Shown here one piece after another: positions 311 through 4,936 of a stretch of DNA of 4,936 nucleotides. Numbering within the stretch: the stretch's first letter is position 1; every line of letters begins with the position of its first letter. Origin of the DNA: a virus (lineage: Duplodnaviria; Heunggongvirae; Uroviricota; Caudoviricetes). Location: positions 1-4,936 of IMG/VR virus record IMGVR_UViG_2657245521_000011; one strand, written 5' to 3'. Both the position numbers and the translations under genes were made by a program. The notes under the pieces are model-generated. The model saw nothing but the letters and a program-made list of their open reading frames with translations, was not told the origin of the DNA and ran no database searches.

Positions 311-866
311 GCGTCATATCTCTCTATAGGTTAAATGGCACTAAAAGCAACGCAGGATGTGCTTTGCTCTGAGCACATCATTGATTCATCTTACTAATAT
401 CTATTAATTAAAAGATAAAACTAGGGGGTTTATGGTAAAACAGGACTGGACAGTGCTGCAACACCAGTCTCTCGCCGACTATGCCAAAACGGGTATATCA
501 CCAAAAGAGTGGTGCTAAGCAGGGAGACGGATTAACACATCTGCACGTTTAGGTGAAGAGTGGACTGACCTGATACAGGTATATGATCCTGTTCTAAGCA
601 TTAATTAGTATAATCGATATTCATTCTCATTTGATGGGGCCTGTTATGCGATCCAACCTGTTACGGGGCGGCGACCGTGTGGATTCTCTCTATTTATGAA
701 TATTGTCCACTATTTGCCATTTCCGTTTTTCTCTCCGAGTACAACATGATTTCTATCCAACAAACAGGGCAACGCCGATGCCAGCACGTGCTAAACGTCC
801 ATGCCGACAAGGGACGTGCGGCAATCATAGTCGCATTGCACGCGTATAAATAACAAGGAGGGGGGA

Positions 867-1100
867 ATGCGCCTCACTGTATTAGATGATGATCCCGGCA
901 GGAAGATTGATATCAGAGTAGAGCGGTACACTGTCTATCTTGATGGTGTTGATGTTAAGCGCGCGCTCACTGCTGATGATGAGAAAGGTGAAGTAATCGC
1001 TGTTGCATGTGATGAATATGGCCACGCGACCATAGAGAACGGCGAAGTGAAGAGGCAGATGCTTTACGGCTTAGTGAGGATTGAACGGTGTCCGCACTGA
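867..1100 (+). CDS. hypothetical protein (77 aa), first gene of the HNH/terminase gene string
   Basis: ATG at 867 is preceded by a strong Shine-Dalgarno AAGGAGG (855-861, 5-nt spacer). The stop TGA at 1098-1100 lies 18 nt before the HNH start on the same strand, an operon-like arrangement. The protein is mildly acidic and has no motif I can recognise. Confidence 0.6.
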   Translation: MRLTVLDDDPGRKIDIRVERYTVYLDGVDVKRALTADDEKGEVIAVACDEYGHATIENGEVKRQMLYGLVRIERCPH

Positions 1101-1118
1101 TTTACAGGTAATGGTGGT

Positions 1119-1472
1119 ATGAACAAAGAACCGCGCATCTATGACAGCAGATGGGGTAAAGCCCGCCAGGCATTCCTGCGCGAACATCCTTTATGCATTA
1201 TGTGTCAGGCACTGGGAAGGATTGAGCTGGCGACTGTGGTCGATCATATCACGCCACACAGGTTGAAAGATGCTCTCATAACAGGAAATCCCGCAGATAT
1301 CTCCCGGGCGCAAAAGCTGTTCTGGGACAGAGGAAACTGGCAAGGGTTATGTAAACCCCATCACGACTCAACCAAACAGCGTATGGAAAAGAGCGGGAGA
1401 ATGACTGGCTGTGATGCTGATGGGATCCCGCTTGACCCCGATTCACACTGGAACAGGGGGAGGGGCGGGTAA
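1119..1472 (+). CDS. phage-associated HNH endonuclease
   Basis: 117 aa with CxxC (CIMC), then DHITPH, then N in GNWQGLC, then CKPHH: the Cys/His/Asn arrangement of HNH zinc-finger nucleases. ATG at 1119 with AGGT about 9 nt upstream. It sits immediately upstream of terS, the position where HK97-like phages carry an HNH gene involved in cos cleavage/packaging. Confidence 0.85.
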   Translation: MNKEPRIYDSRWGKARQAFLREHPLCIMCQALGRIELATVVDHITPHRLKDALITGNPADISRAQKLFWDRGNWQGLCKPHHDSTKQRMEKSGRMTGCDADGIPLDPDSHWNRGRGG

Positions 1473-1686: not shown

Positions 1687-2151
1687 ATGGCAGGGAGACG
1701 TCCGAAACCGTCCCATCTGAAAGCGGTAACCGGCAACCCAAGCAAGCGAAAACTCAATGACAAAGAGCCGTTGCCCTCACGCGAAATACCGTCGCCGCCC
1801 CCGCACCTGACCGACTGGGGAAAGGTTGCCTGGGGAAAACTGACCGTACTGCTGGATGGGATGGGAGTGATGACGGTAGCTGACGGACTGGCACTGGAGC
1901 GCCTCTGTGATATCTACGCCGATATCCTTCAGTTACGTGACACTGTCGCAGTGGAAGGCAGAACCTATACGGTACAGACAGATGGTGGATTTCTGATAAA
2001 ACCGCATCCTGCTGTCGCCATGCTGGCAGACGCTGACCGCCGTTTTAAAAGTTATCTGGTTGAATTCGGTCTGACCCCGGCCGCCAGAACGAAGGTAAAA
2101 GTTGATGGTGGAGAAAAAGACGAAGATCCGTTCAACCAGTTCTTCGGTTGA
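1687..2151 (+). CDS. phage terminase small subunit, P27 family
   Basis: N-terminus MAGRRPKPSHLKAVTGNPSKR is the characteristic start of P27-family TerS proteins. ATG at 1687 with GGAGG at 1674-1678 (8-nt spacer). The ORF-track start at 1678 is a GTG three codons upstream and is less likely. Stop TGA at 2149-2151. Confidence 0.85.
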   Translation: MAGRRPKPSHLKAVTGNPSKRKLNDKEPLPSREIPSPPPHLTDWGKVAWGKLTVLLDGMGVMTVADGLALERLCDIYADILQLRDTVAVEGRTYTVQTDGGFLIKPHPAVAMLADADRRFKSYLVEFGLTPAARTKVKVDGGEKDEDPFNQFFG

Positions 2152-3840
2152 TCCAGCCACGCAGTATGCAATGGATGTGGGTACCGGTAAGAAAATTGCC
2201 GGACCAGATATTCGTAATGCCTGTAAACGTCATTTGCGCGATCTTGAATTTGGGCATAAGCGCGGCTTGTCATGGGATACAGAAGCAGCACTACGCGCGA
2301 TTGATTTTTTTGCGAAGGTACTGAAGCTTAACGGTGGGGAGTTTGAAGGAGAACCCTTCATTCTGTTGCCCTGGCAGTGCTTTATTGTGGGATCCATTTT
2401 TGGATGGAAACGGCGGAACGGGGCGCGCCGCTTTCGTACCGCTTATGTGGAATCAGGCAAGGGATCAGGTAAATCCCCTCTGGCGGCAGGGGTTGGCCTG
2501 TACTGCATGACTGCGGATAAGGAGCCCAGGGCCGAGGTGTATGCTGCGGCGACGAAAAAAGACCAGGCTATGGTGTTGTTTCGTGATGCGGTGGCGATGG
2601 TGGATCAATCACCGGCGCTGGCACAACGTATCAGCAAATCAGGAGGGGCGGGCAAAGAGTGGAATCTGGCATTTTTGCAGACGGGATCATTTTTCCGCCC
2701 GATTAGTTCTGATGACGGGCAGTCAGGCCCACGACCACATTGTGCCTTGATTGATGAAATCCATGAGCACAAAAGCAACATTGTGGTTGAAATGATGCGG
2801 GCTGGTACAAAAGGCAGGCGTCAGGCGCTGATTTTCATGATAACTAACAGTGGTCATGACAAAACCAGCGTCTGCTATGACTATCACCGGTACGGACAAA
2901 AAGTCGCAGCCGGACAACTGGATAATGATGCATTTTTCTCTTTCATTTGTTCCCTTGATGAAAGAGATGATCCCTTCCAGGATGAATCCTGCTGGCCAAA
3001 AGCGAACCCTTCCATGGGGCATACATTTGAGGACAGTTATTTACGGGAACAGGTTGATGATGCCCGCGGTATTCCGTCCAAAGAGAGCATTGTACGACGC
3101 CTTAATTTCTGTCAGTGGGTTGATGCTGAAAATCCATGGATTAGCAGTGATGCCTGGATGGCATGCGAAAAAAAATTCGATCCTGAAGAGTTCCGGGGGC
3201 AGATTTGTTACGGAGGACTGGATCTTTCCGGCAAAAGAGATCTCACTTCTCTTTCTCTGTATTTCCCTGGAAGCAATGCGTTGCTTACTGAGTTCTGGAC
3301 GCCGCGCGATACACTTTTCGATCGCGCAAGGGTGGATCGTGTTCCTTATGACGTCTGGCTGAAGAAGGGGTATGTACACGCGCCGCCAGGTGCTGCAATT
3401 GATTATGGCTTTGTGGCAAAACGTCTGGCAACACTTGCTGCAATGTTCGACATCCGTAAGGTGGCGTTCGACAGTTACCACATTGATTACCTTTTGCCGG
3501 AACTGGATGATGAAGGTGTAAACATCCCACTGATTCCGCACGGCCAGGGATTCGGCAAGTCCGCCAAATCCGGACTGTGGATGCCGCATTCCATTGAGTT
3601 GTTTGAACAACTCATCATGGATAAAAAAATAAACATCGTACTCAACCCCTGCCTTCGCTGGTGTGCGGCCAATGCCGTTATAGAGGAGGACAAAAGCGGA
3701 AACCGTGTATTCAGCAAGCGTCGCAGCAATGGGCGTATTGATGGCGTGGTGTCCGGTGCCATGGCAATTGGTGTTGCAGGATCCTGTGAAGATGACGGCG
3801 ACGGCGATATCAGTGATTTCTTTAATGACCCCATATTTAT

Positions 3841-3844
<4 letters not shown>
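2105..3844 (+). CDS. phage terminase large subunit (ATPase plus nuclease)
   Basis: 579 aa. Walker A GKGSGKS (nt 2456-2476) and Walker B-like hhhhDE (CALIDEIHE, nt about 2741-2767), followed by a C-terminal region with conserved acidic residues (GGLDLSGKRD) as in terminase nuclease domains. N-terminal YAMDVG...CKRHLRDLE is typical of this family. Preferred start is ATG 2105 (AAGGT at 2092-2096), overlapping terS by 47 nt; alternatives are TTG 2102, GTG 2108 and ATG 2171. Stop TGA at 3842-3844. Confidence 0.9.

Positions 3845-4936
<1,092 letters not shown>

Follow-up and report, generated by a model that had tools for sequence, protein, structure and literature searches.

ORF77, a gene upstream of the HNH-terminase module of a defective prophage, belongs to a large uncharacterised family of small phage proteins with a predicted all-beta fold

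Sequence comparisons indicate that ORF77, a 77-codon reading frame directly upstream of the HNH endonuclease gene in an HK97-type packaging module, is a genuine gene under purifying selection and that it belongs to PHROG 24619/3540, a large, phage-restricted family that is catalogued but uncharacterised. The encoded protein is predicted to be small, soluble, single-domain and all-beta. Judged by its distribution among phages, ORF77 is facultative and is not a fixed part of the HNH-terminase packaging machine. As a whole explanation we tentatively favour, with slightly less than even confidence, a mobile late accessory gene whose product would act by binding a partner, as a dispensable modulator of packaging or head completion.

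The ORF77 gene and its surroundings

ORF77 occupies positions 867-1100 on the plus strand of the window (the whole stretch of DNA analysed, 4,936 nt in length), from an ATG at 867 to a TGA at 1098-1100, as called from the list of open reading frames and from PHROG matches. The Shine-Dalgarno motif AAGGAGG was read from the sequence at 855-861 (plus strand), 5 nt 5' of the ATG, and an 18-nt spacer (1101-1118, plus strand), in which a terminator was not found, separates the stop codon from the HNH gene. The original prediction had pointed to a near-consensus ribosome-binding site and to tight spacing with HNH, and both are borne out. Its description of the product as a small, mildly acidic protein encoded upstream of the HNH gene is likewise accurate: the protein has 77 residues, a mass of 8.8 kDa and a pI of 5.06, and no hydrophobic segment was found in it.

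The gene order in the window is ORF77-HNH-terS-terL-portal. The HNH gene (1119-1472, plus strand) encodes a 117-aa endonuclease of the HK97 gp74 / HK022 type (phrog_2323, E 2.7e-48). It is followed by an AT-rich intergenic region of 214 nt (1473-1686, GC 0.34) which, from its composition and its position between HNH and terS as in HK97 (PMC9410871), we infer to be where cos would lie in phages of the HK97 type. This gap also contains long runs of T and of A. The terminase small subunit gene terS (1687-2151, plus strand; Terminase_4, E 6.9e-23) encodes 154 aa in contigs identical to the window, and the large subunit gene terL (2105-3844, plus strand), delimited by the gene call in the full contig L120, encodes TerL_ATPase and TerL_nuclease domains. 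The portal gene is cut at 4698 by the end of an IS3-family (ISEc31-like) element (4684-4936), and the prophage is therefore defective. Copies of this IS end in complete E. coli genomes reach 98.8% identity; outside it, the window has no match of at least 85% identity in 5,426 complete E. coli genomes. A near-identity DNA search with positions 600-1700 gave no phage match, and a search of Rfam found no RNA family within the window. In the arrangement we propose, ORF77 would be the first cistron of ORF77-HNH-(cos)-terS-terL-portal in a defective HK97/lambdoid-type E. coli prophage.

Upstream of ORF77 lies mosaic debris (431-740, plus strand), delimited by matches to phrog_32222/phrog_51 and by blastn. 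Positions 432-515 hold a 28-codon N-terminal fragment of a different terS (phrog_32222/phrog_51) that ends in a stop codon and looks like the remnant of an older packaging module; the DNA at 431-544 is 78% identical to the start of the Klebsiella phages RothC/D (blastn). A second stretch, at 608-740, resembles (~75-79% identity, blastn) the right-hand extremity, immediately before cos, of the lambda-like phages HK225, mEp237, and HK630. Taken together, the terS fragment and this lambda-like stretch show that old module borders have been patched together upstream of ORF77. Still farther upstream, the minus strand carries a hydrophobic-rich 79-aa ORF at 71-310 with weak holin-like and phrog_27656 matches, and in full contigs (L120) this ORF lies upstream of a 302-aa gene of the Vpar_1526 family.

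Since an IS element interrupts the portal gene and the upstream DNA is mosaic debris, ORF77 itself might be a spurious or decaying ORF in a defective prophage. However, the median dN/dS was 0.12 at a median dS of ~1.0 (1,326 pairs from 60 unique homologous coding sequences), and the copy in the window is complete and undamaged, sharing 94% identity with the copy in the intact-looking relative L119. Furthermore, nearly all of 85 related loci retain a GGAGG-type Shine-Dalgarno and the ATG, at an unchanged distance from each other; the DNA farther upstream of the homologues is unrelated between these loci and falls into many classes. The signal of purifying selection thus effectively refutes the notion of a spurious ORF, which we regard as vanishingly improbable, and the earlier claim that ORF77 is a real gene stands.

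We scanned the window with simple consensus patterns and found no promoter-like or terminator-like site between ORF77 and HNH, and no promoter or terminator of its own flanking ORF77. In contigs identical to the window, a Q-like gene and a lysis cassette lie upstream of ORF77. Because no such site separates the two genes, ORF77 is probably transcribed together with the late genes, and read-through of a late, Q-antiterminated transcript is the simplest inference; the protein would be translated from its own strong Shine-Dalgarno. Expression with the packaging genes, as originally proposed, is very probable given the strong Shine-Dalgarno, the 18-nt gap, the lack of a separating site and a 13-nt overlap with HNH in 40 of the 83 enterobacterial loci described below. 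By eye, a hairpin followed by a T-run was seen just before the Shine-Dalgarno of the ORF77 homologue in some relatives, within the 60 nt upstream.

A large family with a predicted all-beta fold

Homology searches recovered 223 clusters of close ORF77 homologues, 62-94% identical, nearly all of 75-78 aa and every one labelled 'hypothetical'. They come from Enterobacteriaceae prophages of Citrobacter, Enterobacter, Klebsiella, Escherichia, Salmonella, Atlantibacter, and related genera. E. coli draft assemblies contain a protein identical to ORF77, and a Salmonella protein falls into its cluster at ≥90% identity. Searching 1.84 billion representatives with a profile extended the family to 934 clusters at 50% identity (E ≤ 1e-3), whose members are mostly stand-alone proteins of 70-100 aa. 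The designation 'orphan' that ORF77 had been given can therefore be dropped. A second, word-indexed homologue search with a diverse alignment returned close relatives only.

ORF77 matches phrog_24619 and phrog_3540 with E values of 1.4e-7 (residues 1-73) and 4.1e-5, and among 121 diverse family members 120 and 104, respectively, match these two groups. Consistent family matches were found only to PHROG 24619, 3540, and 20178, all of 'unknown function'. Consistent with the original remark that the protein carries no recognised motif, ORF77 and 120 diverse relatives gave no consistent match to Pfam, NCBIfam, or PADLOC, and no curated family of these collections was matched. The best Pfam matches of ORF77, DUF3929 (E 0.09) and DUF7412 (E 0.12), fell far short of the cut-off; DUF7412 / phrog_3155, an 'internal virion protein', was rejected as a relative, with E ~0.1 only and none of 121 relatives matching at E ≤ 0.01. 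A literature search found nothing on the family, its sole relevant finding being that HK97 packaging needs TerL, TerS, and gp74.

Several members depart from the simple stand-alone form. Two tandem family paralogues occur within the same phage contig (L148, 298-1100; L149, 4001-4542), the representative P0249 is a fused tandem duplicate, and other members have C-terminal extensions, including a zinc-ribbon-like CxxC...CxxC tail (P0231). The Klebsiella phage ST13-OXA48phi12.4 (L004) carries an ORF77 homologue at 4001-4222 on the plus strand, over which the deposited annotation calls an opposite-strand ORF (3959-4315) that is probably a mis-annotation.

The family consensus reads MRiSVd.dDPGY-(about 10)-V.LDG.Ev...TADEE.G.V...D..G......tl.G.V.Ie. 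Asp37 is invariant in the family alignment, and at least 90% of the sequences share Met1, Arg2, Asp9, Gly11, Ala36, Gly52, Gly68, and Val70. We found no catalytic motif in ORF77, and most of the best-conserved residues look structural (Gly and Pro at turns, Arg2 with Asp9/Asp37), a reading made from the alignment without viewing model coordinates. AlphaFold (AF2) with a diverse alignment returned a confident, compact, all-beta model (pLDDT 94.8, pTM 0.80); with a shallow alignment the model was mediocre (pLDDT 76). Sequence-profile searches of the PDB gave no significant match to the family, and the predicted fold, though confident, is unmatched there. No similarity was found to the folds of solved neck proteins (adaptor, head closure, Neck1, tail terminator), and Foldseek matches in BFVD were to uncharacterised small phage proteins only. 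Profile searches and structure prediction, the follow-up suggested with the original prediction, have in this way led to uncharacterised PHROGs and to a confident all-beta model that no PDB entry matches.

Two leads from narrow profiles were pursued and discarded. The RNA-binding attenuation protein TRAP (MtrB) has the same length as ORF77 and is also all-beta, and a narrow profile gave a weak collinear match to it (E 0.23); however, the match was gone with a diverse profile, the hhalign probability was 2%, and neither profile-level homology nor the conserved RNA- and Trp-binding residues of TRAP were found in ORF77. The narrow profile also matched giant multi-repeat Calx-beta proteins. With the diverse profile A2 there were 0 such matches, and the initial ones were an artefact of a TVLDDD motif.

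Variable partners and variable slots

We examined the context of ORF77 homologues in 83 close enterobacterial loci and the window. In 40 loci the downstream gene is an HNH of a first type ('MPALIPRAC...') that overlaps the ORF77 homologue by 13 nt; the second type ('MNKEPRIY...'), to which the HNH in the window belongs, follows at a spacing of 9-18 nt in 7 loci and of >300 nt in 6. In another 29 loci a 485-aa GT2-like gene follows at 16-20 nt and is itself followed by HNH_3, a 192-aa gene and the packaging HNH, and in 1 locus a gene of another kind follows at 157 nt. The types of terL and portal downstream of ORF77 homologues also vary between loci. Thus, given its varied HNH, terL, and portal partners, ORF77 sits at a mosaic junction and is bound to no single partner. 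The GT2 cassette between the ORF77 homologue and the packaging HNH (L001, 4246-6916, and 28 other loci, e.g. L041, L043, L050) encodes a 485-aa GT2-like glycosyltransferase, a 193-aa HNH_3 endonuclease and the 192-aa protein, which is probably the product of the gene annotated 'glucosyltransferase' beside HNH in HK542/ECP1-type phages.

Phages with the same HNH/terS module often lack the gene. An HNH ~70% identical to that of the window is found in HK022, HK75, HK106, mEp234, and many other Hendrixvirinae, the copies in HK022, HK75, and mEp234 being at the right ends of the genomes, and a terS 82-89% identical to that of the window is found in 14 records of Klebsiella, Pantoea, Salmonella, and Serratia phages. 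ORF77 homologues were detected by tblastn in only ~13 of 50,697 phage isolate records (plaque-forming carriers include vB_EcoS-733R5, vB_VIPKPNMC05, and ST13-OXA48phi12.4), and a six-frame HMM search around HNH found no family member in HK022, in Serratia phage OS31 or in the Klebsiella phages ST147-VIM1phi7.2 and ST899-OXA48phi17.2. Among related phages, then, the HNH/terS/terL module is not consistently accompanied by ORF77. The position immediately 5' of HNH is taken by phrog_3909 in OS31 and by DUF2560/phrog_571 in ST147-VIM1phi7.2; both stand before the same HNH type as ORF77 but show no detectable homology to it (hhalign probability 0.1% for phrog_3909 and 0.04% for DUF2560).

The HK97 gp74-type HNH and ORF77 lie in one neighbourhood, at the end of the late region nearest cos, and probably on one transcript. 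ORF77 is nevertheless not an HNH protein: it is unrelated to the gp74 type in sequence and fold, and what we take to be the gp74-type HNH and zinc-site motifs are absent from its sequence. Furthermore, phages with gp74 are mostly without ORF77.

ORF77 could still be a dedicated partner of HNH or terminase that modulates cos cleavage as a cofactor, an inhibitor or a specificity factor. Its position directly upstream of HNH in 47 of the 83 loci, with the 13-nt overlap in 40, is consistent with such a role, as are distant homologues located between terS and terL (Rhodobacter phages) or downstream of terL (L090) and the endonuclease-annotated neighbours in some distant loci. However, ORF77 homologues pair with two different HNH families, are split from HNH by a 2.5-3.5 kb GT2/HNH_3 insertion in 29 of the 83 loci, and mostly do not lie beside HNH or terminase genes when they are distant. 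The gene is moreover lacking in phages with an HNH ~70% identical (HK022 and relatives) or a terS 82-89% identical to that of the window, and TerL, TerS, proheads, and gp74 suffice for HK97 cos cleavage and packaging in vitro (PMC9410871), with no protein of this kind. Because same-module phages lack ORF77 and the HK97 reaction proceeds without an ORF77-like protein, we consider an HNH/terminase cofactor improbable. The functional link to HNH and terminase that the original prediction implied is weakened by these phages and by the distant homologues in neck, tail, and early regions, to which we now turn.

The distant homologues occupy many different slots. In Rhodobacter phages the domain forms the N-terminus of a 178-aa protein encoded between terS and terL, and in one metagenomic lineage (L090) the homologue has a GpA-type terL with a Mor-like gene on one side and a gpW-like adaptor and portal pair on the other. 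In Xanthomonas phages of the Septimatrevirus type it is found among small early genes and overlaps its neighbours, which are annotated as Vsr endonuclease or I-TevIII-like in the deposited records and which gave only unknown-function matches in a PHROG scan. Other copies follow a DUF3854 primase-like gene or a metallophosphoesterase gene, or stand in arrays of small ORFs. A further 49 viral contigs were retrieved by the TADEExG motif. Their large neighbouring ORFs are mostly of capsid, portal, tail-tube, and other virion families, and the two nearest neighbours on each side match mostly Neck1/tail-completion, tail-terminator, head-tail adaptor, major-tail, and portal PHROGs, together with several HNH endonucleases. 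Direct checks revealed three arrangements: Ad1-(Hc1?)-family-Neck1, Neck1-family-tail terminator, and major tail protein-family-chaperone. Adjacency to terminase or HNH is thus not conserved among the distant homologues, some of which adjoin terminase and many of which lie in neck, tail, and early regions. Overall, most of the slots in which the gene is found belong to late morphogenesis operons.

This distribution bears on whether ORF77 is a stoichiometric minor virion protein of the head-tail connector, or neck. The family gene abuts Neck1 and/or tail terminator in at least 18 of 67 distant loci; since this sample was pattern-selected, is partly redundant and rests on crude gene calls, the enrichment is to be read qualitatively, and a few ancient insertions may be all that lies behind it. 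In L134/L146 a homologue that shares 47% identity with ORF77 lies between Neck1 and tail terminator, and in L146 the short overlaps were verified, with both the start and the stop of the family gene overlapping its neighbours. The Pfam and PHROG neighbours, mostly head, neck, and tail genes, point the same way. Against this, the slot varies, base composition marks the gene as foreign and its predicted fold has no match, which together make a neck protein less likely, and we regard it as a rather poor candidate explanation.

Compared with flanking genes on the same strand, the family gene has a lower third-position GC content (GC3) in 85% of 86 enterobacterial loci and in 79% of 66 distant ones; the median of the difference is -0.07. 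In the window ORF77 has a GC3 of 0.47 against 0.50-0.60 in its flanks, and in L146 the family gene has 0.49 against 0.63-0.72 in the surrounding neck genes. Such low GC3 is what would be expected of an accessory gene that moves horizontally, and not of a co-evolving core gene.

Hendrix and colleagues reportedly described lambdoid morons as extra genes between core late genes, such as HK97 gene 15 and lambda bor/lom. Classical morons bring their own promoter and terminator. Like these morons, ORF77 is present or absent between otherwise syntenic late operons, occupies variable slots and deviates in base composition. In contrast to them, it has no detected promoter or terminator of its own and is integrated into operons, its start and stop overlapping or abutting its neighbours; it also differs from envelope-protein morons in being, by prediction, a cytoplasmic soluble protein. 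Two of the three moron traits considered, presence/absence and composition, are thus found in ORF77, and the third, an own promoter plus terminator, is not. The original prediction had left it to comparison whether the gene is conserved beside HNH and terS or varies like a moron, and the second description fits best.

Possible roles and significance

The reading we prefer is that ORF77 is a facultative, horizontally mobile accessory gene residing in variable slots of late (packaging, neck, tail) operons. Since it lacks a catalytic motif, is small and has conserved residues that mostly look structural, its product most likely acts by binding, and we propose that it would bind a partner late in infection in a non-catalytic manner. 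Our best guess is a dispensable modulator at the DNA-packaging/head-completion stage, at the portal vertex or the neck, and neither an enzyme nor a major virion protein. The homologues in early and replication regions count against a purely morphogenetic role.

Those homologues would fit more readily with a role in anti-defence or against the host, in which a small binding protein would neutralise a component of bacterial immunity, for example one that detects terminase, portal, tail or similar late proteins, or some other host target. Horizontal spread would then follow from the usefulness of the protein in many phage backgrounds. The patchy presence among otherwise syntenic phages, the many slots, including early arrays of small ORFs, the lower GC3 than in neighbouring genes, the small, acidic, non-enzymatic protein and the occasional tandem paralogues and C-terminal extensions are all consistent with this function. 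However, ORF77 has no similarity to any characterised protein, and PADLOC, which covers defence systems only, gave no match. Furthermore, in the window and most relatives the gene is in a late operon, translationally coupled to structural or packaging genes; such late timing is unusual for most counter-defence, and no promoter of its own was found that would allow expression from the prophage. We treat an anti-defence function as the main alternative, somewhat less probable than the late accessory modulator.

More speculatively, and in our view doubtful as matters stand, the family might be a widespread, previously unrecognised class of small beta-fold phage factors without a counterpart among solved structures, which would either act at the portal vertex as terminase gives way to neck proteins or shield terminase, portal or neck from defence sensors. 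If this were true, either role would explain why the gene has repeatedly landed beside terminase, portal, Neck1, and tail-terminator genes in unrelated phages.

For annotation, ORF77 should be called as a gene and labelled an uncharacterised member of PHROG 24619/3540, not a packaging protein. Taken alone, it is one among many conserved hypothetical phage proteins. The family stands somewhat apart, with ~10^3 clusters at 50% identity, no Pfam model, a predicted fold that is unmatched in the PDB and a recurrent presence at the junctions of packaging and neck operons, and it is a reasonable and inexpensive target for structure determination and knockout.
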